From positions 1-58,181 of IMG/VR virus record IMGVR_UViG_3300043429_000067: a stretch of DNA of 58,181 nucleotides. One strand, 5' to 3'. This DNA comes from a virus (lineage: Duplodnaviria > Caudoviricetes). Of this stretch, positions 8,877 through 52,402 are shown one piece after another. The notes below the pieces were generated by a model. That model was not told the origin of the DNA, did not search any database, and worked only from the letters and a program-made list of their open reading frames with translations. Each line of letters opens with the position of its first letter. Position 1 is the first letter of the stretch. The position numbers and the translations under genes are program-made.

Positions 8877-9011
8877 ATGATGAAGAAGAAACCTGCACCT
8901 CAAAAGCCCATGCCTTATAAGAAGGGCGGTATGGTATTCAAGCCTTGCGCCAAGTGCCCGAGCCCTGCGAAGTGTAAAGCTGCCGGAAAGTGCATGTTGA
9001 AGGCAAAGTAA
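8877..9011 (+). CDS. Small Lys/Cys-rich basic protein (44 aa)
   Basis: AAGGAG RBS; MMKKKPAPQKPMPYKKGGMVFKPCAKC... Confidence 0.6.
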   Translation: MMKKKPAPQKPMPYKKGGMVFKPCAKCPSPAKCKAAGKCMLKAK

Positions 9012-9012
9012 T

Positions 9013-9738
9013 GTGATCGATCCCCTGACCATTGTCACCGCGTACAAAGCGGCTACTACGGCCATCGAGATGGCCAAAAAAGGTGTGGCTCTATACAAAG
9101 AAATCAAGGCAACGGCAGGGGATGTCGGTGATGTTATTAAGGATTTACGGGAACAGTTTCATAAGATTACTGACCCCACTCCTGAACAGAAGAAGCAGTA
9201 TAACGAGGAGGTTAAACGTGTACAGCAGATTGCAGAAACTCCTCCACATGAGGCACTTGGTTCGATATGGGATCACCTTGGCACATTCGTAGATCAGTAC
9301 GACATCATGGTCAAGGCGTATGTAGCCAGTGAGATCAGCGCCAAGCAGGTGTACAAAGGCGACATGTCACTGGCTCGAAGGGCACTGGAGAGACTACGAT
9401 TAAAGTACCAGCTAGATTCAATGCTGGCAGAAGTACGTGAAGAAATGGTGTACAACACCCCGTCAGAACTTGGGGACTTGTGGACACGGTTTGAAAAGAT
9501 GTGGACGCAGATCGTACAGGAACAGAACGAAGCGATTGCTGAGGAAATGCGGAAAGCACAGGTGGCGCAATGGCGACGGGAAAAGGCACTGGAGGACCTA
9601 AAGGCAAAGGCGGTATGGATTGGGGCGATAGTGTTCGTCCTAGCATGGTTCAGCGGCCTCCTAATTCTTATTCGACTGACTCAAGCTTACAAAAGTACCT
9701 TTCTGCAGCCATGGTGGTCTTGTGTATTGTGCTTGTAG
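9013..9738 (+). CDS. Coiled-coil protein with C-terminal TM helix (lysis region)
   Basis: MIDPLTI start; hydrophobic AVWIGAIVFVLAWFSGLLILI. Confidence 0.6.
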   Translation: MIDPLTIVTAYKAATTAIEMAKKGVALYKEIKATAGDVGDVIKDLREQFHKITDPTPEQKKQYNEEVKRVQQIAETPPHEALGSIWDHLGTFVDQYDIMVKAYVASEISAKQVYKGDMSLARRALERLRLKYQLDSMLAEVREEMVYNTPSELGDLWTRFEKMWTQIVQEQNEAIAEEMRKAQVAQWRREKALEDLKAKAVWIGAIVFVLAWFSGLLILIRLTQAYKSTFLQPWWSCVLCL

Positions 9739-9855
9739 TACTGATACCAGTAACAGCAATGATGTGGGGCGATCTGAATTACGCGCTTGTACGGGCTGAA
9801 TATCAGACGGGGAAGATGGAAGCGTTGTATCGGAAACTCTTAGAGGAGAGGAAGC

Positions 9856-10152
9856 ATGAGCGAGCTACTAAACAAACAGGATTGGATGACCACCAAGTGG
9901 CGCCCGATGATGGCAATAACCTACATGCTGATTAACATCTGTGATTTCATTCTGTTCCCTGTGATGTTCACGATCGTGCAGTTCTGGGAGACTCAGGCCG
10001 CGAACGATGCGTTCCGCCAGTGGCAGCCGCTTTCGCTGCAGGGCGGCGGGTTTATTCATTTGGCTTTCGGTGCCATCCTTGGTATCTCTGCATGGACACG
10101 TGGGCAGGAGAAGGTAGAAGCCGCGAAGAAGACGGAGGGCGCAGGTGCCTAA
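9856..10152 (+). CDS. Holin
   Basis: KWRPMMAITY...FHLAFGAILG-like motif (FIHLAFGAILGISAWTRGQEK); TM helices; upstream of spanins and endolysin. Confidence 0.7.
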   Translation: MSELLNKQDWMTTKWRPMMAITYMLINICDFILFPVMFTIVQFWETQAANDAFRQWQPLSLQGGGFIHLAFGAILGISAWTRGQEKVEAAKKTEGAGA

Positions 10153-10654
10153 TCCTTGGGTAATTGTCGGTATGCTGGTGTTGGTGATCAGCAGCTACTT
10201 CTACGGCCACAATCAAGGCGGCAAGGAAATGCTCGCCGCATGGAACGCTGAGAAGGCTGAAGCCAACGCCCAAGCTACCAAAGTGCTGGAGGCTGAACGT
10301 GCCAAGGTCGCCGCAAAGGAAAAGGCGCAAGCCGCTAACTTCCGGGTGGCCGAGGCACGGCTCTTACGTGAAACCAAAAAGGTGCAAGATGAGAAAGCTG
10401 CTCTTATGTCTGCCGCTCGTACTGACGGCCTGTTCGTCAACCTCGATGCCTCCGCGTGTTCAGACGGTAGTGGCTCCATGCCCGGTGCTACCAGCGGTTC
10501 CGGAAACGGTGATGGTCGAACGCGAGCCAGACTTCCTGAACAGGTTGCAGAAAGTCTTATCGGGCTCGCAGCCGACGCCGACGAAGTAGTCGTACAGTTA
10601 CAAACTTGTCAACAAATCCTGAAAGCTGAAAGGAAAGATGATGCAACTAACTGA
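10145..10654 (+). CDS. Rz: i-spanin (Rz-like)
   Basis: N-terminal TM, coiled coil, ADEVVVQLQTCQ C-terminus. Confidence 0.8.
   Translation: MPNPWVIVGMLVLVISSYFYGHNQGGKEMLAAWNAEKAEANAQATKVLEAERAKVAAKEKAQAANFRVAEARLLRETKKVQDEKAALMSAARTDGLFVNLDASACSDGSGSMPGATSGSGNGDGRTRARLPEQVAESLIGLAADADEVVVQLQTCQQILKAERKDDATN
10389..10589 (+). CDS. Rz1: o-spanin lipoprotein embedded in i-spanin (+1 frame)
   Basis: MRKLLLCLPLVLTAC lipobox; Pro-rich mature part. Confidence 0.8.
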   Translation: MRKLLLCLPLVLTACSSTSMPPRVQTVVAPCPVLPAVPETVMVEREPDFLNRLQKVLSGSQPTPTK

Positions 10655-11075
10655 GCACTTCACCCTTGAGGAACTGACCGTCAGCGAATCGGCTGCACGT
10701 CAGGGTCTGGACAACACGCCTACCGGCGAGGCATTGGAGAACCTGAAGCGGCTGGCTGAGTTTCTGGAAGATGTACGTACCTTGTTGGGTAAGCCCATCA
10801 AGATCAACTCGGCCTACCGCGCTCCCGAGGTCAACGCCGCAGTCGGCGGTTCCAAGACCAGCCAGCACTGCCTTGGCTGCGCAGCGGATATTCGGGTAAC
10901 CGGCATGACCCCAGACGAGGTGGTACGTGCCATTACGGCATCTGACTTGGACTATGACCAGTGCATCCGGGAGTTTGATAGCTGGACGCACGTATCAATT
11001 CCCAACAAAGAGGACGCAAAACCCCGTAAAATGGCCTTAATTATTGACAAGCAGGGAACCCGGAGCTTTGCATAA
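10638..11075 (+). CDS. Endolysin, peptidase M15 family
   Basis: SAYR..N..VGG...SQH...AAD and WTHVS Zn-ligand motifs. Confidence 0.85.
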   Translation: MMQLTEHFTLEELTVSESAARQGLDNTPTGEALENLKRLAEFLEDVRTLLGKPIKINSAYRAPEVNAAVGGSKTSQHCLGCAADIRVTGMTPDEVVRAITASDLDYDQCIREFDSWTHVSIPNKEDAKPRKMALIIDKQGTRSFA

Positions 11076-13502
11076 ATGGCCGCTGTCAAGATAATCAACT
11101 TCCTCGGTACGGCTCCGAAAATATCCCCGGAGCTTCTACCGAACACAGCAGCGCAGGTAGCAAATAACTGCAAGCTGTACTCAGGAGACTTGATCCCATA
11201 TCCGCAACCTGTGGTGGTAGCAAACACCCAGCGCACGGGCGTGATCAAGACGTTGTTCGCGCTTCGCGATCCTGATACAGACGCGCTGAAATGGTTGTCT
11301 TGGCTGACTGATGTGGACATTGCAGTTGCGTCCGCAAACGAAGACGGTGAGCAACGCTTCTACTACACCGGTGACGGTAAGCCCAAGGTCAGTACGTATG
11401 AGTTGGCAACAGAGGGTACTCCTCCGTACCCGATCAATTACTACGATCTTGGCTTACCAGTCCCTCCGGATTCGGCGCAGCTAACTACAACGGCTTCGAC
11501 GTTTACTCAAAAAACGAGCAGCACGATTGCGCGAGACGCCGGTAATATCGTCACGTTGGTGACCTCGGCAGCGCATGGTTTGCGCACGGGTAATACGATT
11601 ACTGTCTCCGGCTTCGCGTTCCGTACGGGTACTTATAGCCAGTCGGGTACTACAGTCACAGTAACGATTAACGGACATGGGCTATCCAATGGTGCGTCCG
11701 TCACACTGGACTTCACATCTGGCACAACAACCGATGGTACGTTCACGATCACGGGCGTCACGACAAATACGTTTACCGTAACGGCGTCTGCGTCTGCGTC
11801 CACCAGTGGTAACGTAAGCTGGGATATTCGTGGTTTTAATGCTGTAAACGTAGAGTGCACCGTAGTCAATAGCACGACGCTCACCTACTTCAGCCCCGGA
11901 CCACAGGTAACTACGACCTCTACGTCTGATGGTAAGGTTGATCTTGGCGGTCTGACCCAAGCGAGATCGTATGTGTTCACGTGGTTCACCCCATGGGACG
12001 AGGAGTCGATTGCATCTAAGCCTTCGGAGAACCTGTATATCAAAGAAGGTATAACGGTAACGGTAAGTAATCTCCCAACAGTGAAGCCAACCGGCAATAA
12101 CTTTGTGCGTGGAGTGCGGCTGTATCGTACGCTGGCGTCTGCGTCCGGTACTGAATACTATCGATTGGCGACTCTTTGGTTCCCAACGGCGCTATCTCGT
12201 GTAGAACGTACTACTAACGTATCAAAAGTAACGACGCTGTATCCACACAACTTAGCCGTAGACGACCGCTTTAAAATCAGTGGGTGTACTGACGCGACGT
12301 TTGATATTACTGGCGGTATAGTTACTGATGTTATCGACGCCTACACTTTTGAATATTCACAAGCCGCAGCCAACGTAGCAGATACTGCCGTTGCCGCTGG
12401 TACGCTGTACCATGACGTATCTGAAGACCCGCCAACGTCTACCGCACGATACTGGGGCGACGGATCATATAACTTTACCGATGATTTTGATTCTCGATCG
12501 TTGTTCGACATTCTTGGCTCGGATGAGTACGATGCCCCGCCAGAAAATTTGAAGGGACTGACTTCCGCCCAGAACAACATCTTGGTAGGGTTCGTGGGCA
12601 ACCAATTGTTTTTCTCTGAACCGGGTGTGCCCCATGCTTGGCCAGCGCGGTACGCAGTAACACTACCCTATGACATCGTCGGCATCGCGGCGATCAGTGG
12701 TTCTATGCTGATAACCACCGTATCCTATCCGTATATCATTTCAGGTTCTGATCCGGCTGCGGGCATGTCAGTATCGCGTATTGATGCGCTGTATCCATGC
12801 CTGAATGCTAAGAGTATGGTGACGATGGGCTATGGCATTGTGTACTCTACACACGATGGACTTGCGGTATTCTCACCCGGCAGTGGTCCGACAATTATTA
12901 CCAAACTGCTGTACAACAACGATACATGGGAGACTGCAGTTGATCCCGCTACAGTCGTCGCGGAGTATTACGGGGATAGCTACGTAGCGTCTCACTCCGG
13001 CGGTGGACTGGTGTTTGACCGGGATGAAAAGGTTGGCGGATTTTTTGTAGACACAGACTACACATTCACTGCGTCTTGGTACGATGCTATCGCTGGCAAG
13101 CTGTACTACGTCTTTGGTGAGAACGGCGACATCTACGAGTGGAATGATCTAGCCCAACCGATGGTTACGCAGACATGGAAGTCTAAGGTGATCAATACCA
13201 AAGATATGATCAACCTTGGGGCTGCGCGGATCATTGCCGACTATGGGGATACGACTTCCGTGTGGGACGAAACAACCACGCAGTGGCAAACCACTACGGA
13301 TACATGGGACGCTCCCGATGCGATTACGTTCAAACTATGGGTAGACAAGGAACTGATCTACACCACTGTTGTGAACGACGATAATACGTTCCGTATGCCC
13401 ACCGGCTATCGGTCTGATACGTTTGAGATAGAGGTAAGCGGCAATATCCGAGTACGGGCGGTACATCTTGGGGAGACTCCGCTAAGTCTCAGGGAGGCAT
13501 AA
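11076..13502 (+). CDS. Tail nozzle/DNA-stabilisation protein with inserted HGL beta-barrel domains
   Basis: GFVGNQLFFSEP..PHAWP motif; three HGL/HNL repeats; lies before ejection proteins. Confidence 0.7.
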   Translation: MAAVKIINFLGTAPKISPELLPNTAAQVANNCKLYSGDLIPYPQPVVVANTQRTGVIKTLFALRDPDTDALKWLSWLTDVDIAVASANEDGEQRFYYTGDGKPKVSTYELATEGTPPYPINYYDLGLPVPPDSAQLTTTASTFTQKTSSTIARDAGNIVTLVTSAAHGLRTGNTITVSGFAFRTGTYSQSGTTVTVTINGHGLSNGASVTLDFTSGTTTDGTFTITGVTTNTFTVTASASASTSGNVSWDIRGFNAVNVECTVVNSTTLTYFSPGPQVTTTSTSDGKVDLGGLTQARSYVFTWFTPWDEESIASKPSENLYIKEGITVTVSNLPTVKPTGNNFVRGVRLYRTLASASGTEYYRLATLWFPTALSRVERTTNVSKVTTLYPHNLAVDDRFKISGCTDATFDITGGIVTDVIDAYTFEYSQAAANVADTAVAAGTLYHDVSEDPPTSTARYWGDGSYNFTDDFDSRSLFDILGSDEYDAPPENLKGLTSAQNNILVGFVGNQLFFSEPGVPHAWPARYAVTLPYDIVGIAAISGSMLITTVSYPYIISGSDPAAGMSVSRIDALYPCLNAKSMVTMGYGIVYSTHDGLAVFSPGSGPTIITKLLYNNDTWETAVDPATVVAEYYGDSYVASHSGGGLVFDRDEKVGGFFVDTDYTFTASWYDAIAGKLYYVFGENGDIYEWNDLAQPMVTQTWKSKVINTKDMINLGAARIIADYGDTTSVWDETTTQWQTTTDTWDAPDAITFKLWVDKELIYTTVVNDDNTFRMPTGYRSDTFEIEVSGNIRVRAVHLGETPLSLREA

Positions 13503-16543: not shown

Positions 16544-18628
16544 ATGGCTGTGTCTTTAGGAAGTCTTCTCGCCGGTGCCGGAGATATCGGCAAGGCCATG
16601 TACGAGCAGCAAAATACAATGCGGCAGTACGAGCGCGACAAAATTGCGCTGGACGAATTACGCCGTAGTGAAGCACTGCGCCGTGAGATGCTGAACGCCC
16701 CCATGCCGACACAGGTACCGGCGTTTGACTTTGGCGCTGGTGTACCGATGGAGAACATCGCTCCACCTCCTGCTGCTCCGGGCGCTCCTGCCCCTACACC
16801 AGCGGTATCAGATGGCTTTACTGCACTCGACCCCAACAGTCCACAAGCTCGTGCGCTGTACCAGCAGCGGTTTGAGCGGCTACGCGCCGAGCAGTCCAAA
16901 GCTGCAGGTGTGCCGTTGGCTGTTGAAGGTGCACCGAGTCGCGCCGGTATTACTCCTGCTCCGGGCGTCACACAGGTCAATCCAGAAGGTTCGCGCTTTA
17001 CCCAGTGGTATCAAGGTAACACCGCACAGAACCAAGTAACAGCACAACGCCAGAACATCCAGATGTCATTGGTTACTGGTGAGTATGGCGGTCCCGGCTC
17101 TGCCCCGATCCGAAACATCTATGGTTTCTTCGCTGATGATCCCAATACGGCCAAGGCTCGTGAACGTGCAGGGCTTGCTGCTGATTGGTATGGTTCGGAT
17201 ACAGCGGACAAGTACTTCCAGCAGAATCCCAACATGCTGGCGGAAGCACAGAAAGACCCAGTCGGTTTCTATGAGAAGGTATCTAAAGGTCAGAAGGCAC
17301 TGAAGACCGCAGTGGAACCTCAGCCGCTACCTGCCACCAAGAAAGCACTGAAGTACGACCAGACAAAGACCGAGTATGATGATCTGATCATGCAGAGCGC
17401 CCAGCAGTACGGTGTCGATCCTGTGATCTTCAAGCGCCTGATCGGTAGTGAGTCATCGTTTCAAGCTGACCCAACTGCGAACCGTAAGACTGCGCGGGGT
17501 ATTGCCCAGATTCATGTCAACAACATCAAAGCTGGCATGATCAGTCTGCAGGACTCGCTGAATCCGCAAGTAGCTATCCCCTTTGCAGCACAGTTGTTCT
17601 CCCGCTATCTGCAGGAGTCCGGCGGTAGTTATGAACAAGCCCTGCAAAAATACAAAGGCGCAGTGTCGATGCGCGGTAAGCAGTCAATGTCTGGTGTGAT
17701 CAACGATATTCTGTCTGGTACACAAACCCCTGCTGCACCTGTGGCACCACTGGGGGCAAACCAAGTAGCCGCAACAACCGACATCCAGAACCCATTCATA
17801 TCTTCTGCACAGGCCGCAACCCCTGCACCTGCTGCACCTGCTGCACCGGCAGCCGCGCCTACTCGTCAAGCTCAGGCTGATGCTTCATCGTTCTATCTAG
17901 CCAACCCGCAGTCAATCCCGATGGATATGCAACGCGCCAACCAGATGCGGGATGAGATGGCACGACTGGCCACGATGTACCAACGATCTGGTATGGGCGC
18001 TCAATATATGGAAGCCCGTATGAAGGTACTTGAGTTGGACAACAACATGACCTATCTGCAGGGTATGCAGGGGCTCCAAGAATTCTCTCTTGCCAACGAC
18101 CCTCGTCGCCTTGCTGCTGTATGGAGCCAGTACGCTGGTGTGCCGGTGGGTATTCAGCCGCGTAGCGATGGTACGTTCAACATCATCGTCAACGGTAAGA
18201 AGACTAAAGAAGGTATCAGTGCTTCTGACATCTCAGACGCTGCCCGCTCCGCATTCGACCAGACTTATCGCCAGCAGAAAGCTGAGACGGCTAAGACTAT
18301 GGGCATCGAAAGCTTCAAGAAGCAACTCGACGCACAGGTGGAAGCTGTCAAGCAGAACGCTCAGATGATCCGCGAAGCCACGGTCGAAGCTATCAAGGGT
18401 CGCAACAAGGTCATGGAGGTTCGCCTTGGCCGCGAGGACTTCGAGATCAAACCGATCGGAGATGGCACTGCTCGTGCATGGGTATCCAACAAGGCTGGCA
18501 CTGCGCTTGGTATGATCGATGCCAACACCGGGCAGTTCGTAGAGATGGACGGTTTGAAGATTCCCAAGCCGCCGACTTACACAGGAGTTCGTGGCGCTCC
18601 CGCTGGCGTATCCGGAAACGTGAGGTAA
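16544..18628 (+). CDS. Internal virion/ejection protein 2 with lytic transglycosylase (SLT) domain
   Basis: YGVDP..LIGSESS, ARGIAQI, AAQLFSRYL..GGSYEQALQKY motifs. Confidence 0.75.
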   Translation: MAVSLGSLLAGAGDIGKAMYEQQNTMRQYERDKIALDELRRSEALRREMLNAPMPTQVPAFDFGAGVPMENIAPPPAAPGAPAPTPAVSDGFTALDPNSPQARALYQQRFERLRAEQSKAAGVPLAVEGAPSRAGITPAPGVTQVNPEGSRFTQWYQGNTAQNQVTAQRQNIQMSLVTGEYGGPGSAPIRNIYGFFADDPNTAKARERAGLAADWYGSDTADKYFQQNPNMLAEAQKDPVGFYEKVSKGQKALKTAVEPQPLPATKKALKYDQTKTEYDDLIMQSAQQYGVDPVIFKRLIGSESSFQADPTANRKTARGIAQIHVNNIKAGMISLQDSLNPQVAIPFAAQLFSRYLQESGGSYEQALQKYKGAVSMRGKQSMSGVINDILSGTQTPAAPVAPLGANQVAATTDIQNPFISSAQAATPAPAAPAAPAAAPTRQAQADASSFYLANPQSIPMDMQRANQMRDEMARLATMYQRSGMGAQYMEARMKVLELDNNMTYLQGMQGLQEFSLANDPRRLAAVWSQYAGVPVGIQPRSDGTFNIIVNGKKTKEGISASDISDAARSAFDQTYRQQKAETAKTMGIESFKKQLDAQVEAVKQNAQMIREATVEAIKGRNKVMEVRLGREDFEIKPIGDGTARAWVSNKAGTALGMIDANTGQFVEMDGLKIPKPPTYTGVRGAPAGVSGNVR

Positions 18629-18632
18629 CAAC

Positions 18633-21600
18633 ATGGCACAGGCTGGACTGTCGTTCGCTAACCCGTTCATGGAAAAGACGAGTGTTGGCGAACCTGCTAA
18701 CCCCTATGCACCGTTCAGTCCTACATCATCCATCGGGATGGGTGGGCTCGGTCCTTCACTCGCTGACATGGCCGTCACCGGCCAGCAACTTATAAAGCAA
18801 AGTCAGTTCACTCTCCCTGAGTTCACCCGCCCACCCGCTGGCGCATCGATCGCATTTAGCCCGGCTGAGAAGAAAGTCTTTGTCAACGGGCTGACGTTCG
18901 ACGTAGATGATGCAACCTCCGCGCTGCAGTCTGAATCCTATATGCGTGGTCCCGGCACGGGACTCCCCAAAGGGGGCGACTGGGTTCCACTGGATGAAGG
19001 CACCTATGCACAGTATCTCGACGCCATTCGTAACCCTACTCTGGGACGCCTCGCAAGTAAGAATTTCGGGCGCGGTGTTGATGTTATGCAGTCTCTGGCT
19101 GGCCGGGCGCTGCAACTGGCGGGTGCTGAGGGACTGGGCGGTCGTATTGTCGCCGCGCAAGAGGCTGATCTGCGTAAGACAGCGCCTTATGAACGCCAGT
19201 TCACGGATATTGAATCGGGTCGCGGCGCTGTTGAGTGGCTGGTGGCTAACTTCGCACAGCAAGGACCCAACCTTATTGAATCTGTTGCGACTGCTGGACT
19301 GGGTTTCTTGGCTGGTACTGCTGTTGGCGGTCCTGCCGCTGGTGTGTCTGCTGCTTTCTCTGGCCTTCTAGGTAAGTCCGCATGGAAGGAATCCGTCAAA
19401 GCTGCACTGAAGAAGCAAGCCGCTGGTGAAGCACTGGACGCTGCAGAATCCAAGCTGATCAGGGAAGCCGCCGGTATCGCTGGCGCTGTTGCTACGTCCT
19501 ACGCACAGAATCTGGCCACGGGTGCCGCCGACATCTACGGTGAGTTGCGTGACCAAGGCGCTGATGCTGGTGATGTGGATGCTCGACTGAAGGCACTGGC
19601 AGGTTCCGTCCCGTACGCCGTCCTTGAGACACTGCCTGAATACCTGCTGGCCGGTCGTATCTTCAGCGGTATGGGTGCTCCACGGGCTATGGCTCCGGGC
19701 GCTTCGTTGGGTCGTCGTGGTGCTGAGTTGCTGCGCCGTGGCGCAGTCGGTGGTGTTGTCGGTGGTACGGCTGAAGGTGCCACGGAAGCTGGTCAGGAAG
19801 CTCTGTTGCTGGGTATATCTGGCCAAGACCTGTCCTCTCCTGAAGCCGTCAACCGGCTGATCAACTCGTTCGCTGCGGGCTTCGGCGTTGGTGGTCCGAT
19901 CGGCGCTGTGGCCAACCTGAAGGGTAAAGCTCCAGCCAACCTGTTGAACCCCGGCCAGACAACCGACCCGTCTCCTGAGCAACAGAATCCCCCGCCCGGT
20001 GGTCCGCTTGCCCCTGTGGCACCTGCGTCCCCGTTCGGCTTTACACAGCCCATGCCGCCCGCTCCGGGTGCTCCTGCTGCTCTCCCCGGTGGTGCTCCTG
20101 CTGCGCCCGCACTTGGCGCTCCTGTGACTGCTCTGCCTGCTGATCAGGCCATTATGGTGACTGGACAGGAACCGCTCCCGTCGGGTCCCGGCACTCAGGG
20201 TGTGCTGAATATCTTTGGACCTGAAGGTGTGTCGGCACAGGAGTTGGCAACCCGTATGCAGCCCCCGGCTGCTCCTGCTCCCCAGCCCGCAGCACCTGCT
20301 GCACCTACTCCGCAGCCCGGCCAAATGGCATTGCAGTTTGCCCCACCGGTACCGGGCGCAGAAGCTCCGTTCAATCCGCAGATGGCCAATCAGATGCAGG
20401 CCATCCAGCAACGCATTCAGCGGCAGCGTGAGTTCGAGATGGCTCAGGCACAGGCGGCTGCCCAGCAGCAAGCTCAGATGGATCAGATCGCACGACAGAG
20501 CCAGAACGCCCGTGATCTATACATCCTGCAGCAACAACAGGCGGCAGCCGCTGTACAGCCGTCCCCGCAACAACTTCCAAGAGTTCCTGCTACCCCGGCG
20601 GAGCCTGTGCAGTTACCGTTGTTCACACCCAAGCAAGCCCCACGTCCGTCACGTGGCGAGGGTCTGCGTAAAGGTGGCCGCGCAGCGGCGCTTCCTCCGA
20701 CTGGTGTACCGGCTGTACAACCACGTGTTGACCTGCGTCGTTCGCCACAACTTCCGCTGTTTACACAGGAAGGCCAGCCGTCGTTGGCAGCACTGCGAGC
20801 CGCAGGTGTGAAGGGCAAACTTCCAAAACCTACACTGGAGAAGGGTGCCAAGCAGATCAAGCCAACAGGCAAGGCTGTAACACCTGCCACGGTTGAGAAG
20901 GCCAAGGCAGATCGACTGGCTGCTATCAAGGCAGCTTCTGAGAAACTCAAAGCGAAGGGGAAAGAAGATGCCGCTCAAAAAGGGAAGCAGCAACAAGGTG
21001 GTGTCAGCCAACGTCAAGAAGATAATGGACGAGTACAAGGCGGGCGGCAAGCTGGGGAACAGCCCAAGGCCGAAGTCCAAAAAGGCGGCGCTGAAACAGG
21101 CCGTCGCGGCGAGCCTCTCAAGCGCGGGGCGCAGCAAGAAACCTTAACCGACAGGTTAAAAGCTCGTATTGCTAAAGGCGCTTTCGGGGGACCGACCCCA
21201 AAAAAAGTCGGGGCGGCGGTAGCCGCCGTTGAGGTCGAAGCTCTCCCACCGGCTGAAGCGTGGGAAGACATGAAGCCTGAAGGTGCACCAGCATACAACG
21301 CCCTGACACGCGCTGCCCAGCAGGAATGGGCGGGCGCACCTGCTCGTACTATGGCTTTGGCAGAGAAGCTGGCTGCTGGCGAGACAACGATCGAGGAGCG
21401 CGAGCCGACTGCCGCTGAGATACTTGCTGAGGAAATCCAAGCTGCTGAGGAAGCCACCGACATCCGGACATTCCGCGATGCTATCCAGACGGTGATGGAG
21501 TATGCGTTCTTCACCAACGAAGAAACCAACACCAAGAAACTCGTAGCCCAAGCACAAGCGTTCCTCGATAACACCCAGTTCTCACTGGAACAGATGGGCG

Positions 21601-24600
21601 CAATGGATCAGGCGTTCTTGGATGCTGCGCAGTATCGACTCACGCTGGATGCAACCTACACCCGTGGCGGTAAGAAAGACCAGCCCAAGCCGTGGTTTTC
21701 CTACGCGCTGGCACGTAACCTGCTGCCCAGTATCAAAGCCAAACTGATCAACCTGCCCGCTGTTTACAAGGCCGCTGCTCCCGCTGGCGAGAAGACGATG
21801 AAAGCTGGTGCGCCTAGCACAGCCAGCCGCATTACGAGCACACCACAGGAGTTGCTTGGTGAACTGATCAGTGATCTGATCACGCAGATTCGTGAAGTGT
21901 CCAACCTGAACGCGCCGATGAAGTTCCGTGGCGAGACGTATACCAACCTTGTTGATCTGGCCAAGCAGTTGTATGCCAAGGTGGACGCGGCTGGGAAAAA
22001 CTTCATCGTTCGTGGGTATAAACTCAGTGAGTACTTCAAGGCTGACGGCACACCCAAGACACTGAAGTCCGGTGGTCGCGTCATCATTACCAATAAGGAA
22101 CTGACTGCCGAACAGCAAGCCGAGTTGGAAAAGCAACAACGCGCCGAGAAGAAAGCAATGGCCGCCGAGCGCCGTGCCGCAGCACAGGAAGAATTCAACC
22201 GCACTGTGTCGCCCGAGGAAGATGCTTGGGACAATGACGATGGCCGCTTCTACCGTGATGATGGCAGCCCGATCAACACAACGGTGCCCATCGGTCGTGT
22301 CAAGATTCTGGTCAACAGCTTCCTGTCCAAGCTGCGCATGAAGCCAACCGTTGGTGTGTACGCCAATGTCGAAGACCTGCGCCGCCGCAACCCCAAGCTG
22401 TACGAACAGGCAGCCGCTGCTCGTGGTAATGGTGACTTCGGTACTGTCAAGGCTGCTGGCTATTCGTTCGGTAAAAACGTCCTGATCTTCACCGACTTCA
22501 TCCGTACTGAACAACAACTGAAGTTCATCCTTGCCCACGAAACACTGGGTCACTTTGGATTCAGGGGCATCATGCCAGCAGCACAACTGGACAAGGTGCT
22601 GAACCGTATCTACGAGGTTGACCCAGATGTCCGCGCCGGTGTGGACGCAATGATGCAAAGCCGTGGCCTTCCGAAGTCAGAGGCCATCGAAGAATATTTG
22701 GCAGACAACGCCGCTGATCTGGATGTGTCCATCGTGACCCGCATCTGGAATGCACTGAAGAACTTCCTGAACAAGCTGGGCATCACGTTCCAAGACGACG
22801 AGGCTCGGTACTTCATCAACCAAGCTCGCAAGTATGTGCGCCGTGGTGACACTGGTAACTACGTCAACGCCCGTACGCTTGTGGAGGATATGGAGCAACT
22901 CGATGCGGACAGAAATGATGGCCGTTACGCTACTGCTCCTATTGGTGATCTGGCTTCACGTGCATTTACTGCTGGCGCTCTGAACCGTAGGCACGGTGGT
23001 ACAGGTGGACTGGCTGGCGCAGCACAGGCATTTGTTGATGGGGTATTCGGTGCCCGGCGTAATGTGCCCGGCAAGGTTGCCTCCATCCTTGAACAGATAC
23101 AGACACTGGACAATAAGGCACGTCGTAGCTACGGCCTGAACCAGATATATCGGATGCTGGAAAAGCAACAGCAGTTCTCCCGCGCATTGCTGTCGAAGTA
23201 CCAACGCATGACTCAGTTCACCCACTCGCCTGATCTGTTTGGTCTGGGTAAAGGTGTGACAGAAGCTCAGAAAGAATCTGCTGGTGAGTTGCTGGCTCGT
23301 GCCGCCTTGCTCCGTGCGGCTGCTGCGACGGATGAAGCAATCAAGTCGTATGACTCTCTGGTATCTGTTGACGACATGGGTAATGTCACGGTCAATCCAC
23401 TGGTGCGTCAGCAGATCGAGCAAGCAGGTTTTGTTACCGCCGAGGAGTTCCGCAAGGGCTTTGACGTCGAGTACTCCAACGGTGAGAAGGTGCGCTTCCA
23501 GTTCGACGTGGACGAGAACAGCCCTGAGTGGAAGGTGTATCTGGAAACCCGTGATACGGTCAACGAAGCTGCCATCGATCTGATGCTGGCTAACTACGAA
23601 GCTGCACAGGCCGAGGGCAAACGGGTTGTTGGTGATCTGAACAACCAGCGCACTACCACCAACAAGTTTACGAACGATGATCTGGATGCTATCCGGCGTG
23701 CAGCGGAACTGTATAAGAACAAGCGGTACCAAGGTAGTGACGTGGCAAGTGCTGGTGTAGAGGTAAAGAAAGCGGCTGCCAAGGATTCGGAGGAGTTCAT
23801 CATTGCGTTCGGTCGTGCGCTGTTCAACGATGATGTGTACAAGGTGTGGGTGAAAGACCCGACCGCCAGCGCAGAGATTGCCAAGGACTTTGAGAAGTTC
23901 ATGGCTGCTGAGTACGACGATCTCCGCGCTGCCCTGCCAAGTCTGCGCTCCAAGATTCGCAACGAGAACGACTCGTTCGCTGTACAGAAGGCAGTGCGCG
24001 ATCTATTCATGTTCGACCTGCAGTCCAAGAACGCAGACTATTACGCCAAGCGTACTATCCTTGGCTCGTATGTACCGTTCGTACGCCGTGGTACTGAGCA
24101 GGTTCGATTGGTGGCAGTGGATGCAAACGGCAACACGGTTAAGCTGGACGAGAATATCCGCAGCACCCTGCCGTACTTCCACACTGACACCCGTTCCGAA
24201 GCAGAGGCTATCGCGGCTGATCTGGAGAAAGAGTTCGGTGACCAAGAGTTCACTATGCTGGACGATACCGGCGCAGAGGTTAAGGTACGCTTGATCACTG
24301 AGGTGTCGAAGAACCGACAGTCGCCTGACCTGACTGAAGCCGTGAACTTTAACGAGTTCGTGTACGTACTGAACAGGCTCAACGCCAACATTGCTCCGGA
24401 CGTACGCGAGAAGATCATCACGACACTGACCAACCAGAACAGTCGTGCTCGTCGTAACCTGCAGCGTTCCGGTACCGAGGGATGGGATAAGGATGTGATC
24501 CGCTCTGTGTCCGAGCACCTTGAGACATCTGCCCACGTAGCAGCCAAGAAACTCTATCGCCATCGACTGGACGATGTGCTGCTGGATAACCGCAACTGGC

Positions 24601-26474
24601 TGGGCGATGATCAGAAACTGAAAGACCTGAAGGATGCTGTAGCCAACGCGCAGACTGACGGTGAGCGGGCACGTGCGCAACGTGCCTACGATGAGTATGC
24701 GTACATGTACAGATACATGGCTGGTAGCACCGGCAAGCGTACTGTCACGATCGATGGCGAAGAAGTACCCACGCTGGGTCGTGGCGAAGATTATCGGGAA
24801 GAAGCCAAGCAGGTGCTGCGCTGGTACAGTGAGGCCACCAATATCACCGACTCCACTGAGGATATGCTCTCGGGTGAGGCTGGCTCTGCACTGAAACTGG
24901 CAACCGTCCTGATGCAACTCGGTGGCTCCGTGGCTACAGCGGTGATCAACTTGGCTTCGATGGCTACCCACAGTCTGCCGTACCTGTCCTACTACAACTC
25001 CAAGCGTGGCTTCGGTGGTGGATACGGTGAGTCCAAGGCTGCGTCTGCTCTGTTCCAAGCGGCTCGTGATGTGAAGAACCGCAACCTGTCCGAAGCTGCG
25101 TTCCTGAACGACATACTGCGTGAAGGTACGTACGACAGGTACAACCTGACAGAAGATGAAGCACAGTTCCTGTTCCAGCAGACTGAGGAAGGCACACTGC
25201 AAGCAGCCCAGTTCAACGCACTGGTGGGTACCGCTCGTGGCAAGGTGTTCAACAACAAGGCTCAGGCTGCGATCAAGCTCTGGATGGAGATGTTCTCCTA
25301 CACGGAACAGTTCAACCGCCGCGTAACCGCTCTGGCTGCGTACCGCTTGGAGAAGGAACGTGCACTGGCGCAGGGTCTGACCGAGGAGCAAGCCATCCGT
25401 GCTGCTACCGAAGCTGCTCGCACTGCCGTCAATACTGCTCAGGGTGAGTATGCGATGTTCAACCGCCCTGAGATGGCTCGCGGTAACGTACTGCAATACG
25501 TGTTCATGTACAAACAGTTCGTGATCGTTACAGTCCAGTTGATGCGCAGCTTGCCGGTCAAGGGTCAACTGATGATGCTGGGCTTCCTGCTGCTGACTTC
25601 TGGTCTGAAGGGTCTGCCGTTTGCAGAAGATATATTCGACATCGTTGACACCATAGCTCAAAAGCTGGGCTTGAAGATGGCCAGTGTGGAGAAGGAAATC
25701 ACTGAGTGGGTTGACAGCGTGGCTCCGGGTATGACCCCGTATCTGATGCGTGGTGTACTCGACCGGATGACTGGTGCCACGATGTCTACCCGTCTGGGTA
25801 TGGGTGATTTGGTGCCACTGACTGGTGCGTTCCGCGCTGGTGCTGACCCGGCTCGTGAAGTGTCTGACTTCGCTGGCCCTGTGTTCTCTGGTATCTCTGG
25901 TCTGGTAGGTATGGCTGGCAGCCTCGGTAAGTACGGTGCGGAAGTGATCGGTCTGCGGGATGATGTGACTACCATCAACGGTATCCTGCGTGACTCTCCG
26001 GTTGCGGCTCTACGTGCGATGGGTGACAGCTACGCTTACCTGAACAGCGGAATGATTACCAACGCTCAGGGACAAGTTGTACAGCGTGAAGCACCCTACC
26101 ACGTGATCCTTGCCCGACTGCTGGGCTTCTATCCGGCCATTGCTTCTGAGCAGAACGACATCGTGCGGCTGTCCAAGTACGTCGGTGACTATGCCAAGGC
26201 GATCAAGGCTGAGTATGTCAGTGCGTACGTCAAGGCAACACTGTCGGGTGATCGTGAACGTGCACGGGAGATTGCAGCCGCAGTGCAGGAGTGGAACCAA
26301 GGTGCTGAGGGTACGGGGCTTACTATCCGTACGTTTGAGAAAGATGCTGCACGTGCAGCCTTGGAAGCCGGTCGGCCTACAGCACTCAGGTATCTCCGTT
26401 CAGCACCCAAGCAGATGCGTCCGGAGACAATCGAGTTGCTGCAAGCCTATGGCCTGTACGACGAGATCAGGTAA
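18633..26474 (+). CDS. Giant internal virion/ejection protein (2613 aa, polyvalent-protein-like) with zincin-like motif
   Basis: Last gene of late arm; LAHETLGHFG...EEYLAD motif; Pro/Gln-rich linker. Confidence 0.7.
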   Translation: MAQAGLSFANPFMEKTSVGEPANPYAPFSPTSSIGMGGLGPSLADMAVTGQQLIKQSQFTLPEFTRPPAGASIAFSPAEKKVFVNGLTFDVDDATSALQSESYMRGPGTGLPKGGDWVPLDEGTYAQYLDAIRNPTLGRLASKNFGRGVDVMQSLAGRALQLAGAEGLGGRIVAAQEADLRKTAPYERQFTDIESGRGAVEWLVANFAQQGPNLIESVATAGLGFLAGTAVGGPAAGVSAAFSGLLGKSAWKESVKAALKKQAAGEALDAAESKLIREAAGIAGAVATSYAQNLATGAADIYGELRDQGADAGDVDARLKALAGSVPYAVLETLPEYLLAGRIFSGMGAPRAMAPGASLGRRGAELLRRGAVGGVVGGTAEGATEAGQEALLLGISGQDLSSPEAVNRLINSFAAGFGVGGPIGAVANLKGKAPANLLNPGQTTDPSPEQQNPPPGGPLAPVAPASPFGFTQPMPPAPGAPAALPGGAPAAPALGAPVTALPADQAIMVTGQEPLPSGPGTQGVLNIFGPEGVSAQELATRMQPPAAPAPQPAAPAAPTPQPGQMALQFAPPVPGAEAPFNPQMANQMQAIQQRIQRQREFEMAQAQAAAQQQAQMDQIARQSQNARDLYILQQQQAAAAVQPSPQQLPRVPATPAEPVQLPLFTPKQAPRPSRGEGLRKGGRAAALPPTGVPAVQPRVDLRRSPQLPLFTQEGQPSLAALRAAGVKGKLPKPTLEKGAKQIKPTGKAVTPATVEKAKADRLAAIKAASEKLKAKGKEDAAQKGKQQQGGVSQRQEDNGRVQGGRQAGEQPKAEVQKGGAETGRRGEPLKRGAQQETLTDRLKARIAKGAFGGPTPKKVGAAVAAVEVEALPPAEAWEDMKPEGAPAYNALTRAAQQEWAGAPARTMALAEKLAAGETTIEEREPTAAEILAEEIQAAEEATDIRTFRDAIQTVMEYAFFTNEETNTKKLVAQAQAFLDNTQFSLEQMGAMDQAFLDAAQYRLTLDATYTRGGKKDQPKPWFSYALARNLLPSIKAKLINLPAVYKAAAPAGEKTMKAGAPSTASRITSTPQELLGELISDLITQIREVSNLNAPMKFRGETYTNLVDLAKQLYAKVDAAGKNFIVRGYKLSEYFKADGTPKTLKSGGRVIITNKELTAEQQAELEKQQRAEKKAMAAERRAAAQEEFNRTVSPEEDAWDNDDGRFYRDDGSPINTTVPIGRVKILVNSFLSKLRMKPTVGVYANVEDLRRRNPKLYEQAAAARGNGDFGTVKAAGYSFGKNVLIFTDFIRTEQQLKFILAHETLGHFGFRGIMPAAQLDKVLNRIYEVDPDVRAGVDAMMQSRGLPKSEAIEEYLADNAADLDVSIVTRIWNALKNFLNKLGITFQDDEARYFINQARKYVRRGDTGNYVNARTLVEDMEQLDADRNDGRYATAPIGDLASRAFTAGALNRRHGGTGGLAGAAQAFVDGVFGARRNVPGKVASILEQIQTLDNKARRSYGLNQIYRMLEKQQQFSRALLSKYQRMTQFTHSPDLFGLGKGVTEAQKESAGELLARAALLRAAAATDEAIKSYDSLVSVDDMGNVTVNPLVRQQIEQAGFVTAEEFRKGFDVEYSNGEKVRFQFDVDENSPEWKVYLETRDTVNEAAIDLMLANYEAAQAEGKRVVGDLNNQRTTTNKFTNDDLDAIRRAAELYKNKRYQGSDVASAGVEVKKAAAKDSEEFIIAFGRALFNDDVYKVWVKDPTASAEIAKDFEKFMAAEYDDLRAALPSLRSKIRNENDSFAVQKAVRDLFMFDLQSKNADYYAKRTILGSYVPFVRRGTEQVRLVAVDANGNTVKLDENIRSTLPYFHTDTRSEAEAIAADLEKEFGDQEFTMLDDTGAEVKVRLITEVSKNRQSPDLTEAVNFNEFVYVLNRLNANIAPDVREKIITTLTNQNSRARRNLQRSGTEGWDKDVIRSVSEHLETSAHVAAKKLYRHRLDDVLLDNRNWLGDDQKLKDLKDAVANAQTDGERARAQRAYDEYAYMYRYMAGSTGKRTVTIDGEEVPTLGRGEDYREEAKQVLRWYSEATNITDSTEDMLSGEAGSALKLATVLMQLGGSVATAVINLASMATHSLPYLSYYNSKRGFGGGYGESKAASALFQAARDVKNRNLSEAAFLNDILREGTYDRYNLTEDEAQFLFQQTEEGTLQAAQFNALVGTARGKVFNNKAQAAIKLWMEMFSYTEQFNRRVTALAAYRLEKERALAQGLTEEQAIRAATEAARTAVNTAQGEYAMFNRPEMARGNVLQYVFMYKQFVIVTVQLMRSLPVKGQLMMLGFLLLTSGLKGLPFAEDIFDIVDTIAQKLGLKMASVEKEITEWVDSVAPGMTPYLMRGVLDRMTGATMSTRLGMGDLVPLTGAFRAGADPAREVSDFAGPVFSGISGLVGMAGSLGKYGAEVIGLRDDVTTINGILRDSPVAALRAMGDSYAYLNSGMITNAQGQVVQREAPYHVILARLLGFYPAIASEQNDIVRLSKYVGDYAKAIKAEYVSAYVKATLSGDRERAREIAAAVQEWNQGAEGTGLTIRTFEKDAARAALEAGRPTALRYLRSAPKQMRPETIELLQAYGLYDEIR
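20968..21147 (+). CDS. Nested small basic protein (59 aa) in +1 frame of giant gene
   Basis: GAAGGGG upstream of ATG; MPLKKGSSNKVVSANVKKIM...KQAVAASLSSAGRSKKP resembles a widespread stand-alone phage peptide family. Confidence 0.6.
   Translation: MPLKKGSSNKVVSANVKKIMDEYKAGGKLGNSPRPKSKKAALKQAVAASLSSAGRSKKP
21186..21232 (+). promoter_or_regulatory. Candidate -1 ribosomal frameshift signal
   Basis: GGGGGA, A7 run (A_AAA_AAA in frame), 5-nt spacer, GGCGGC-ggta-GCCGCC hairpin, TGA in -1 frame at 21230. Confidence 0.5.
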
Positions 26475-29322
26475 CTGCTTTCAACTGACCAATCGTCAGG
26501 TTGTCTATCGCGTCATCGGCGTCATTCAGCATCCCAATGGTTTGTGGGTTGTTGAGATTGATACCGATGACGTATGACTGACCCAGCTTGATCGGGGTGT
26601 CCTTACCAAGATACGCCTTGCCAGACTTCGGTGTGACGTTCAGTCCCTGCTCATCCAGTTCGTTCATGAAGGTCTTGTAGTCTGCGCCACGGGTGGATAG
26701 CCAGCGTCGGAAGTGCGTCTTGTCCAGTAACACCGTACCAGCAGACACTGTGCCGCCCATATCCTTGCGGTAGAAATCGAACCGGGCTCGTATCTCTCCA
26801 CGTGGTACACGGTTGTAATCCATCGTGGGTTTGTTGGTGCCGTTGTGGTACACCTGTACCTGTGCGTCGGCAATCTCGTTTAAGTACTCAGTCAGCAGAT
26901 CAAACGCATCCACCCTGTACTCAGCCACTGTCCTGCGGATAGCACCAATCTGTGCCAGTACCCACTCGGTACCGTTGTGGTTATCGAACTTGATCAGACC
27001 CCAGTCTTTCGCCAGCTTGCCAGCCAGATCAGCCAGCACAATACCCTGCTCCCAGTAACGCTCGGCACCGCCGAAGTCTGCCTTGTATCTAGCGTGGAAT
27101 GTGGATGATGCTTCTGCAATGGCAGCTTTCACACCGTCAGGACCCAGTTCCATCAGCTTGGATATGAACGCCCTGCCGATGTGTCCATAGTTTGTTGTCA
27201 GGAATTCGTAAATCTTTTTGCCTGCTTCTGTGCTGCGGGTAAACATCGGTAGGACAGGTACGCTAACCTCCAGTATCCGCGCCATCTGTGCGTCTGTGTC
27301 CATACCGGATGCGATCAGCTTAGAGTTCATCGACTTGTTGGTAGACACCACCACTGGCATTGCCCATGTCTTGGACTCGCGCTCCTCGGCTGATCGTGTC
27401 AGTCGTGCCTTGTCTCGCCCTTGGCTCACCCAGTATGCGAAGTCACCGACCTCTTTATCGTCCATCATTGTGGCTTCATCGATGGTCATTGGCATGTGGC
27501 AGTACATACCCATCCGGGAGAACAGTGTGTTCTGTGTGTACTTGGCAGCGAAGTGCAGCTTGTCTGGGTTGCCGTACAGCGACTGTATCCACAACTGTGC
27601 CAGTGTCTTACCACCACCTGTGGGACCGTACAGCGATATGGTCAGCCCCTTCAGTCCTGTGAACGCATACAGCGGAGCAGATAGACCAACGCATAGCGCA
27701 AACATGTGCGCTCTCATGTCGGCCTTCTCCAGCAGCGCAGTGAAGTTTGTCCATGCGTCAGCACTGCCGGAGCATCCGTACATATCCTGCCCAAGTCTCT
27801 GACTGGTGGATGCCAGCGCAACTTCTTCCTCAGCAATAGTCCCGTCTGGTTGCTTGCGCAGTATCGTGTCACCGATAACAAACTGGGAGTAGTTCTCTTT
27901 CCACCCGAACGTGGCGTACAGATTCGTCATTGCCCGTCTCTGCCGCAGTTCATCCATGTATGCTCGTAACATATATTGGAAGTATTGAGTCTGTGATTTG
28001 TTGTAAAGGACAATGCCTTGGTCAGCGATTGCCAGCGTGAAGTCTTTATCCTTGGCATCGGTCAGCAATCCCTGCCGCATCGACAACTCTTGCCAGCCTA
28101 CATGCGGACGGTTCCAGTGGTAGCGCACTGTCTCGTATCCGAGTGACTCATCCCTGCCGTACGACACTGGGTATATATCAAACCGGCAGACATCAATGTC
28201 TGTGTCGTCCAACGTCACCTTGATACCAGTGGCCGTACGCTTATATGGTTTGGGTAGCGGTATCTCTAAGGCAATCGGGTCGAGCACCTCAGTGGTTTGT
28301 GCAACCTCTTGAAACTGTGCGCCCAGCCTGATGGGGGAACCGATCTTACCCATGTACGGACACTTGTCGCATCCACTGGGGCGGTCGGCTTTGAACTTGT
28401 CGCATCGTGTCGGACCACTGGCAGACTGCTTCCAATGGTGCATTTTCCTCAGTGTGCTGTTCGGGTCGAACGTCGGATGGTTCTCGCTCCATGCAATCGC
28501 AGTAGCGTCAGCGTCTTGGCAGAACGCAGCCACACCGATCACGTTGTACCAGAACGGCTCCAGCACCTCATGCTGGTTCTCTACCGCCCACTTAATCTGC
28601 TTACACTTGGTAGCGATGATGGCCGCATTACCCGGTGGGAAGTCCTGCTGTACTGCCAGTGCTTGTGCCAACGCACTCACAGGCTTTGTGCTATGGCTCA
28701 CTGATTGAGCTACCGGCACATTGGAAACGTACGGTGCAAGTACTACAAACATGGCATTCAGATCAACCGGCTGGGCATCTACCAACAGCTTGACCTCATT
28801 ACCATTCTTGGGATTGTGTGTACCAATGGGGCGCAGCACCAGTGCATTGTTGGCTGTCAGCCCTGCGTCAACGTCGAACTTTCTGGCTGCTGTTGCTGCC
28901 TTCAGTGCGAGTGCCAGCGGCTTCCACCGCGCAGGTTCAAGCGCCTCGGTCAACACCCAGTACACATGCAGACCGTTACCTGAGTGGACGATCATGGGTT
29001 TAGGCAGTCCCATCTCTGAGATAAACTTACCCAATGCAAGCAGCCCTGCTTTCCAGTCGGGGAATGGTTTGTTCTCTCCGCAGTCAACGTCTAGCGCCAG
29101 TACTTTTGTCAGGCGTACGTTCTCCTGCTTCCTGCTGCCCTTATCCACGAACGTGGATATTCCGAAATATGTGTTGCTTCCGCGCTGATCAAGCGCCAGT
29201 ACTGCTTTCGATAGGTCTTCCACCGAGGAAAAGAATCCCTGCTTTGGCGCACCGTCAATTGTGATCGCCGCATAGAATCCTTCCGATGGTAAGACCCGCT
29301 GAAGAAAACTCAACGTGTCCAT
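26467..29322 (-). CDS. Primase-helicase (AEP-type primase, Cys-rich linker, DUF927-like domain and P-loop helicase)
   Basis: LDVD, SGNGLHVYW, CDKF..GCDKCPY, GPTGGGKT, TIDE motifs. Confidence 0.85.
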   Translation of the reverse strand: MDTLSFLQRVLPSEGFYAAITIDGAPKQGFFSSVEDLSKAVLALDQRGSNTYFGISTFVDKGSRKQENVRLTKVLALDVDCGENKPFPDWKAGLLALGKFISEMGLPKPMIVHSGNGLHVYWVLTEALEPARWKPLALALKAATAARKFDVDAGLTANNALVLRPIGTHNPKNGNEVKLLVDAQPVDLNAMFVVLAPYVSNVPVAQSVSHSTKPVSALAQALAVQQDFPPGNAAIIATKCKQIKWAVENQHEVLEPFWYNVIGVAAFCQDADATAIAWSENHPTFDPNSTLRKMHHWKQSASGPTRCDKFKADRPSGCDKCPYMGKIGSPIRLGAQFQEVAQTTEVLDPIALEIPLPKPYKRTATGIKVTLDDTDIDVCRFDIYPVSYGRDESLGYETVRYHWNRPHVGWQELSMRQGLLTDAKDKDFTLAIADQGIVLYNKSQTQYFQYMLRAYMDELRQRRAMTNLYATFGWKENYSQFVIGDTILRKQPDGTIAEEEVALASTSQRLGQDMYGCSGSADAWTNFTALLEKADMRAHMFALCVGLSAPLYAFTGLKGLTISLYGPTGGGKTLAQLWIQSLYGNPDKLHFAAKYTQNTLFSRMGMYCHMPMTIDEATMMDDKEVGDFAYWVSQGRDKARLTRSAEERESKTWAMPVVVSTNKSMNSKLIASGMDTDAQMARILEVSVPVLPMFTRSTEAGKKIYEFLTTNYGHIGRAFISKLMELGPDGVKAAIAEASSTFHARYKADFGGAERYWEQGIVLADLAGKLAKDWGLIKFDNHNGTEWVLAQIGAIRRTVAEYRVDAFDLLTEYLNEIADAQVQVYHNGTNKPTMDYNRVPRGEIRARFDFYRKDMGGTVSAGTVLLDKTHFRRWLSTRGADYKTFMNELDEQGLNVTPKSGKAYLGKDTPIKLGQSYVIGINLNNPQTIGMLNDADDAIDNLTIGQLKAVT

Positions 29323-52190: not shown

Positions 52191-52402
52191 TCAAGCCTGA
52201 TCCGCGAATCATCAAGTTGATGGCGACCATCACTCGGCAGCATCCGGATTTTCTGGAGTGGCTGGGCGAATGGCGTATGCGGGAGCTTGAGCAATTACCA
52301 CTGGCGGCAAACAATACAGCACTGATGCAGGGGCGGTGCCAAGTATTGGGTGAACTGTACAAGTTCGCCAAAGACTCCCCTGAACTAGCGGCAAAGTTAT
52401 GA
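52187..52402 (+). CDS. Small head-assembly protein
   Basis: Between portal and scaffold; LMQGRCQVL. Confidence 0.55.
   Translation: MIKPDPRIIKLMATITRQHPDFLEWLGEWRMRELEQLPLAANNTALMQGRCQVLGELYKFAKDSPELAAKL

Follow-up and report, generated by a model that had tools for sequence, protein, structure and literature searches.

The freshwater bacteriophage genome considered here, IMG/VR record IMGVR_UViG_3300043429_000067, is a complete virus record of 58,181 bases (CheckV 100%) and was analysed over its whole length, hereafter called the window. Within it, the stretch 20968..21147 is very likely a functional protein-coding gene, embedded in the +1 frame in the disordered linker of the gene for a giant PLxRFG-domain virion protein. 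Moreover, the distribution of its homologues indicates that the nested gene is the older of the two coding sequences, the giant frame across it being an unconstrained read-through spacer.

The nested gene and its translation signals

Read directly from the sequence, the nested open reading frame (ORF) starts at ATG 20968-20970 and stops at TAA 21145-21147. It lies entirely within the 2613-aa ORF 18633..26474, on the same strand, and the offset between the two starts, (20968-18633) mod 3 = 1, places it in frame +1. The 59-residue product contains 13 K, 2 R, 1 D and 1 E and is, accordingly, strongly basic. An earlier sequence-only reading of this DNA had described a +1-frame ORF with a purine-rich ribosome-binding site, over which the main frame becomes a low-complexity Q/G/R sequence. 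Both observations stand: the ORF translates to exactly the peptide quoted there, with AAGGGGA located 6 nucleotides (nt) upstream, and the translation of the giant frame matches the quoted Q/G/R string. An open alternative frame is in itself no evidence of a gene, because this GC-rich stretch is full of ORFs in alternative frames, with 21 ORFs of at least 40 aa across 20000-22000 and a GC content of 58-60%. In other words, it is homology, conservation and selection that raise the nested ORF above chance.

The start of the gene is preceded by a Shine-Dalgarno (SD)-like sequence (Table 1) that is equalled in strength at 2 of the 179 other out-of-frame ATG or GTG codons within the giant gene; the accepted gene starts of the window range from +1.2 to -11.1 kcal/mol in SD energy. 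Considering the nested copies found in other phages, all 19 nested starts tested have an SD energy in the top 9% of their own gene, and an AGGAG-like motif is found 6-9 nt 5′ of the start in each nested copy, although the flanks are too divergent to be aligned. The family of the window's gene is referred to below as type A. Its 12 distinct nested copies start with ATG (nine) or GTG (three), and three of them have a stop in the same frame 4-5 codons 5′ of the start. As a separate observation, an inverted repeat (TTAACC-gaca-GGTTAA, window 21140-21165) lies across the nested stop; it is absent from the divergent flanks of the relatives and is probably due to chance.

A search of 18000-27000 for sigma-70-like promoters was negative (0, as compared with 3.1 expected), and terminator-like sites occur at background level only. 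Translation would therefore take place from the messenger RNA (mRNA) of the giant gene. Specifically, the proposed mechanism is that ribosomes may start at an internal site of the late mRNA that carries the giant gene, and that the small protein would be produced independently of, yet together with, the giant protein.

Selection on the two frames

Comparison of the window with eight relatives shows that variable sites are distributed unevenly over the nested codons, with 24, 24 and 40 variable sites at positions 1, 2 and 3, respectively, of 55 each (Fisher p 4.8e-4). In the nested, giant and third frames the pooled ratio of nonsynonymous to synonymous differences (pN/pS, NG86, 28 pairs) is 0.28, 1.87 and 1.54, respectively, values that come from non-independent pairs and from a method not built for overlapping frames, a concern that is partly answered by a control within the gene. 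In this control, consisting of three pairwise comparisons over 14 windows of the giant gene, the reversal is confined to residues 780-835, where pN/pS is 1.7-3.0 in the giant frame and 0.12-0.33 in the +1 frame; the remaining 13 windows have a giant-frame pN/pS of 0.19-0.88. Within the nested frame, values of up to 0.5-0.9 are found for synonymous divergence, at a nonsynonymous divergence (dN) of 0.03-0.19. In a set of 11 nested copies, the nested frame has 34 invariant residues out of 55, as opposed to 7 of 55 in the giant frame. In addition, serine is kept across the AGY and TCN codon families at codons 8, 13 and 49, arginine across AGR and CGN at codons 34 and 55, and leucine across CTN and TTR at one nested codon. 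Because variation falls at third positions and residues are kept through switches of codon family, the signature is one at the protein level and not at the nucleotide level. A hand count over the metagenome contigs, eight rows of which are not included, puts 12 of the 21 variable sites within the ORF at nested third positions. The nested frame is, in short, the one under purifying selection, and the giant frame is without amino-acid constraint over the nested bases; with a giant-frame pN/pS of about 1.9 and 7 of 55 residues invariant, the giant protein is therefore not what constrains the nested sequence.

The giant frame nevertheless stays free of stops. In the first 55 codons, the giant-equivalent frame contains no stop in any of the nine distinct nested copies, the window included, whereas in free-standing copies of the same gene it is open in 0 of 66, with a mean of 4.2 stops. 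Similarly, T occupies 1.3% of third codon positions in the nested copies and 22% in the free-standing ones. The giant frame is open because T is avoided at these positions, where a T followed by AA, AG or GA would create a stop. Low pN/pS in the nested frame, an open giant frame and the depletion of T at third positions together establish that both frames are selected, the nested one for its protein sequence and the giant one only for staying open.

The small-protein family and its free-standing relatives

The nested protein matches the phrog_2423 hidden Markov model (E 2.3e-8, 34.9 bits). Searches by tblastn returned six matching records of isolated phages, among them that of Prochlorococcus phage P-HS2; in another, phage DSL-LC04, the matching gene is annotated and overlaps the portal gene at its end. 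A large protein database yielded seven relatives (50-91% identity), and a scan of viral contigs confirmed 352 relatives among 599 candidate stretches. The search of the peptide against phage proteins that the sequence-only reading had called for was therefore rich in homologues. An alignment of 38 members contains ten invariant columns (M1, P2, L3, K4, G6, S8, K10, N15, A45 and A47), and the window's protein shares both the N-terminal MPLKKGSS and the C-terminal KQAVAxAL helix of the full-length family alignment.

From the 352 confirmed relatives, 80 loci were kept for counting. The gene is free-standing at 71 of these and nested at nine (L004-L010, L013 and L014), in the latter always in frame +1 of ORFs of 1874-2718 aa, two of which are cut by contig ends. 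At least 44 of the 72 upstream neighbours of free-standing copies match the portal family phrog_1216, two match phrog_156 (also portal) and five match head maturation protease. In 43 of 72 cases a free-standing copy shares 11 nt with the end of the gene before it, and in six cases 23 nt. The statement, in the sequence-only reading, that peptides of the MPLKKG type are usually free-standing genes of phage head modules was right, as indicated by this prevalence of free-standing copies, by their portal and head maturation protease neighbours and by the usual 11-nt overlap. Judging from these homologues, the family is an old one that occurs widely as a gene of its own, usually joined to the portal gene at its end.

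The possibility that free-standing copies are flanked by homologues of the giant gene's two halves was considered and is unsupported by BLASTP of the neighbours against the ORFs of the window, which gave two matches only. No second type A copy and no gene of the other family described below was found in the genome of the window, and blastn of 20000-22000 against isolated phages gave no match. The position following the portal gene, which is the place of the MPLKKG gene in other phages, is occupied in the window by an unrelated 71-aa ORF (52187-52402) that overlaps the portal stop by 4 nt.

A cassette site with two unrelated guests

Relatives of the N-terminal domain of the giant protein were found at 34 loci. 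Five of them end before the site of the nested gene, leaving 29 that are informative. Type A is present at the site in 6 of the 29, a different +1 ORF beginning with MPFKSEAQ or close variants, here called type B, in 19, and neither in four (L086, L093, L098 and L099). All 25 nested genes, or guests, are in frame +1 and fall at residues 755-949 of the host protein. The sequence-only reading had proposed that the +1 ORF be followed through aligned giant genes; purifying selection in the nested frame and the six relatives carrying the gene agree with that proposal, but most of the others hold a different gene at the site and a few hold none.

Type B shows a weak match to phrog_1375 and no detectable homology to type A (hhalign probability 1.3%). 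Loci with type B at the slot include L087, L089, L090 (11516-11680), L095 (11264-11407), L097, L100, L102 and L109-L117. In viral contigs 279 relatives of type B were confirmed, from which 80 loci were likewise kept: at 35 of these the gene is nested in ORFs of at least 600 aa, always in frame +1, and the hosts include giant genes of other kinds. The marks of dual coding recur in this family, with T at 2.3% of third codon positions in nested copies versus 22.7% in free-standing ones, and with the host-equivalent frame open in 34 of 34 nested but in 2 of 41 free-standing copies. The 44 distinct nested copies all start with ATG or GTG, and ten of them have a same-frame stop shortly upstream. Free-standing type B genes come after tail-fibre-like or virion structural genes. 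At eight loci (L140-L144, L160, L161 and L194) a tail-fibre-like or collagen-like ORF of at least 1630 aa, cut by the edge of the locus, ends 3-98 nt before the start of the type B gene at position 5001. Because of this location directly after such ORFs, type B is linked with very large structural genes even when it is not nested.

Several comparisons bear on the boundaries of the exchanged segment. Between L101, which carries type A, and L099, which carries neither guest, the flanks are nearly identical in DNA and enclose a sharply bounded replaced segment: L101 holds the nested gene within 11340-11620, and L099 has in its place (about 9650-9850) some 190 nt that encode a segment resembling the sequence just downstream of the window's cassette. 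When the window is compared with L100, a type B locus, homologous host-frame flanks are found on both sides of a segment extending from the SD to the stop of the guest. In addition, contigs from four metagenome studies match the window from 20968 to about 21140 only and then continue into other flanks, and two of those flanks end in AGGAGG directly before 20968. The unit bounded by the SD and the guest's stop acts as an exchangeable cassette, with type A, type B or neither at one and the same site in relatives of the giant gene. Recombination may have brought it into the linker, in a register in which the host frame would stay open. The guest is also better conserved than its host gene. The giant protein of L004 is about 34% identical to that of the window, in the C-terminal part only, and its guest is 96% identical; that of L013 has no BLASTP match to the window's giant protein and no PLxRFG match, and its guest is 62% identical.

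Weighing the alternatives

Several observations weigh against the view that 20968..21147 is a functional embedded gene. The gene is dispensable at the site, as 4 of the 29 informative relatives are without a cassette, and in one of them, L086, a complete genome with terminal repeats, neither family was found anywhere at E <= 0.01. The phrog_2423 match of the window's protein is confined to residues 1-22, while other family members match across 44-49 of the 52 profile positions. Nested copies are without the C-terminal extension present on most portal-linked copies, and because it is missing their function may differ. The SD is moderate (-5.6 kcal/mol) in four type A relatives, with 8-17 equal sites per gene. 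To these points are added the limits of the pN/pS estimates given above, the absence of any RNA run containing the stretch among the sequencing runs listed, and the lack of a function match for type A in Pfam, PDB or fold searches.

Phage structural genes often give rise to frameshift products, and a programmed ribosomal frameshift from the giant frame into the +1 frame would give a truncated N-terminal product ending in the small-protein sequence and no independent small protein. Such an event might be suspected from the +1 frame of the window, which is already open from TTG 20893, 25 codons ahead of the ATG, and from a run of seven A just upstream in the relative L007. It is nonetheless quite improbable, given that in all distinct nested copies, 12 of type A and 44 of type B, the conserved peptide starts exactly at the ATG or GTG, that a same-frame stop stands 1-5 codons upstream in three type A and ten type B copies, that a strong SD is found at the right spacing, and that free-standing homologues begin at the same residue; moreover, the unalignable upstream flanks contain no conserved slippery site. 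To a similarly small degree it could be imagined that the nested ORF is a relic, namely a small gene captured when the giant ORF read through it, no longer expressed and persisting through recent divergence or through a need of the giant protein. A relic of recent capture would not be expected to reach the synonymous divergence reported above at so low a dN, and the weak conservation of the giant frame over these bases leaves the giant protein without the required need. Start codon and SD are retained in every copy, and the 62%-identical copy is intact in a giant gene that has no BLASTP similarity to that of the window. What a relic would account for is that some close relatives are without the gene and without a visible replacement, and that the stretch is missing from the RNA runs among those listed. 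The choice left by the sequence-only reading, between an engulfed small gene and a maintained dual-coding unit, can thus be narrowed: purifying selection, a start and SD of its own and the avoidance of T at third positions speak for the maintained unit and not for a decaying relic, and, the nested family being older and wider, engulfment survives as its probable origin.

The variation at nested third positions, together with the keeping of serine, arginine and leucine through multi-base switches of codon family, also speaks against a conserved nucleic-acid element, such as an RNA structure or a packaging or recombination signal, of which the open +1 frame would be a by-product. A sharply bounded island of conservation amid divergent flanks is what such an element would look like, and the inverted repeat across the stop codon could be part of it. 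Free-standing homologues at 50-60% protein identity, though, differ widely in DNA (GC 34-59%), and the repeat does not recur in the downstream flanks of relatives, which makes this explanation very improbable, more so than the two preceding ones. The least credible alternative is an artefact of assembly or annotation, in which a chimera or a frameshift error would have produced the giant ORF and the small gene would lie between two separate genes. The record is indeed a metagenome-assembled virus, and misassembly readily affects giant ORFs that contain low-complexity linkers. The same architecture recurs, however, across many metagenomes, in 13 type A contigs and 44 distinct type B copies, contigs from other studies span the junctions at >=99%, and the depletion of T at third positions reflects long-term selection for an open giant frame.

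The giant host gene

The coordinates of the nested gene and of its surroundings are collected in Table 1. The giant protein consists of a conserved N-terminal domain (about aa 1-440), a linker rich in P, A, Q, G and K (about aa 440-905) and, at its C-terminus, the PLxRFG domain. Membership in the PLxRFG family is indicated by a score of 199.7 bits to NCBIfam NF032893, for a cut-off of 100, and the C-terminus also matches phrog_11358 and phrog_21376. By tblastn, residues 2082-2604 match structural or PLxRFG proteins of F116-like Pseudomonas phages at 27-28% identity. As the tblastn matches of the giant protein are limited to its C-terminal 20%, no cultured close relative was found. The giant gene comes after a homologue of an internal virion protein.

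Table 1. Positions of the nested gene, its ribosome-binding site and the parts of the host gene in the window
Feature	Position	Strand	Basis or remark
Giant host gene, 2613 aa	18633..26474	+	ORF
Low-complexity linker part of the giant gene	19950..21350 (approximate)	+	Composition; relatives align poorly, many indels
Shine-Dalgarno-like AAGGGGA	20955..20961	+	6 nt 5′ of the nested ATG; -7.9 kcal/mol duplex with anti-SD
Nested gene, 59-aa basic protein, phrog_2423 family, type A cassette	20968..21147	+	Frame +1 of the giant ORF
PLxRFG (tail-700) domain	24069..26333	+	NCBIfam NF032893, residues 1813-2567

Other features of the giant gene and of the genome are worth recording. An HExxH motif, AHETLGH, near the centre of the giant protein (about residues 1285-1295, window 22400-22600), may belong to a zincin-like peptidase module such as has been described for polyvalent virion proteins; Pfam gave no match there. 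In one relative, L093, the N-terminal domain of the giant protein is found on a stand-alone 862-aa protein (9001-11589) followed by small genes, which reveals the giant gene as modular near the position of the cassette. Elsewhere in the window, two adjacent large genes (3897-5990 and 5994-8687) have in common a C-terminal module of about 190 aa that matches many PHROG families of baseplate wedge, virion structural or tail proteins, and they are probably paralogous receptor-binding proteins.

Structure and possible function

Type A is predicted by AlphaFold2 to form a helical hairpin (H9-24 and H38-52; pLDDT 75), and type B to form two short helices with a basic tail (pLDDT 78.6). Neither protein has a match in Pfam or NCBIfam, nor one below E 0.1 among PDB sequence profiles. 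A Foldseek search with the type A model gave no PDB match at E <= 0.001; in BFVD it returned only uncharacterised phage proteins resembling members of the family, one of them from Ralstonia phage RSB1, and the protein-atlas clusters nearest to type A are all viral hypothetical proteins.

Two candidate identities were considered and set aside. The window's protein has no match to DUF6496 (PF20106) at E <= 1, the gathering cut-off of this family being 24 bits. Seven of the 38 type A members do reach E <= 1, the best at 9.5e-4, and one atlas cluster carries DUF6496 on 17% of its members, which leaves DUF6496 as a possible distant relative of type A and as a lead only. An o-spanin is ruled out, as the 59 residues contain no cysteine and no hydrophobic signal.

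A possibility, to which we give somewhat less than even weight, is that this small basic helical-hairpin protein is an accessory factor of virion assembly or ejection, acting with the portal or with the giant protein. A broader and still more tentative proposal is that of a guest slot. According to this, the giant virion genes of many uncultivated phages might have a site in a disordered linker reserved for unrelated small basic genes in frame +1, as SD-to-stop cassettes exchanged by recombination. The guests would be obligate partners of the portal or giant protein, such as assembly chaperones, packaging adaptors or co-ejected factors, and nesting would lock their expression to that of the giant gene.

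Comparison with known systems

The closest known arrangement is the embedded spanin pair Rz/Rz1. Embedded spanins, such as Rz1 in Rz of phage lambda and 18.7 in 18.5 of T7, have their own start in another frame (PMC6139136). Spanin pairs are described there as embedded, overlapped or separated in different phages, with the shared DNA on a mutationally tolerant linker, and the embedded gene is reported to be overlooked by gene callers (PMC6139136). The likeness, as far as it can be drawn from that account, is that of a small gene lying entirely in a larger phage gene, in another frame and with its own start, over a tolerant linker of the host. Unlike Rz1, the nested protein described here is no lipoprotein, and its host is a 2613-aa virion protein and not an i-spanin. 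In addition, a single family is here both nested and free-standing, and the slot takes alternative, unrelated guests.

With the small basic proteins of phrog_2423 and DUF6496, the window's protein has in common the MPLKKGSS motif and the KQAVAxAL helix. It differs from them in having no DUF6496 match and, like the other nested copies, in lacking the C-terminal extension. Classical overprinting, as in phiX174 and many RNA viruses, is described in terms of two frames under asymmetric constraint, one of them giving a disordered and compositionally odd product (PMC8227390, PMC6195259). As portrayed in these sources, it resembles the present case in that two proteins are made from the same bases, with asymmetric constraint and one odd product. 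The polarity, however, is reversed: here the ancient frame is the nested one, and the odd, Q/G/R-rich product is the host read-through, with its pN/pS of about 1.9. A de novo overprinted gene is ruled out by the 66 distinct free-standing copies, which come from otherwise unrelated phages.

The giant protein also resembles polyvalent and PLxRFG virion proteins in its PLxRFG domain, its place in the virion module, its long inter-module linkers and its HExxH motif, and one type B host has a MutS-I-like piece, a domain listed for polyvalent proteins (PMC5512222). It differs from them in its nested gene, the passages of PMC5512222 on overlapping or nested genes mentioning no out-of-frame gene within such proteins. 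More widely, the arrangement was not found described in a search of the literature on PLxRFG, DUF6496 and nested, embedded or out-of-frame genes of phages, supplements and subscription journals being outside its scope, and the same search returned no mention of DUF6496.

Implications

Nested copies accounted for 9 of 80 type A loci and 35 of 80 type B loci in the samples examined, and they are likely to be unannotated because gene callers forbid nested genes. If the guest-slot proposal were true, hundreds of such genes would be missing from phage annotations, and overlapping genes could arise by the capture of an old gene and not by de novo birth. The association of two abundant families of small phage proteins with the portal and with giant virion or tail proteins narrows the search for their role. 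Moreover, the disordered linker of a giant virion protein can, as the exchanged segments suggest, serve as a landing pad for swappable cassettes. The cost of dual coding is in this case measurable, namely as the almost complete loss of T at third codon positions. Finally, this is a natural and well-controlled case of an overlapping pair in which the nested gene is ancestral and the host frame is the newcomer, that is, the usual story of overprinting in reverse.

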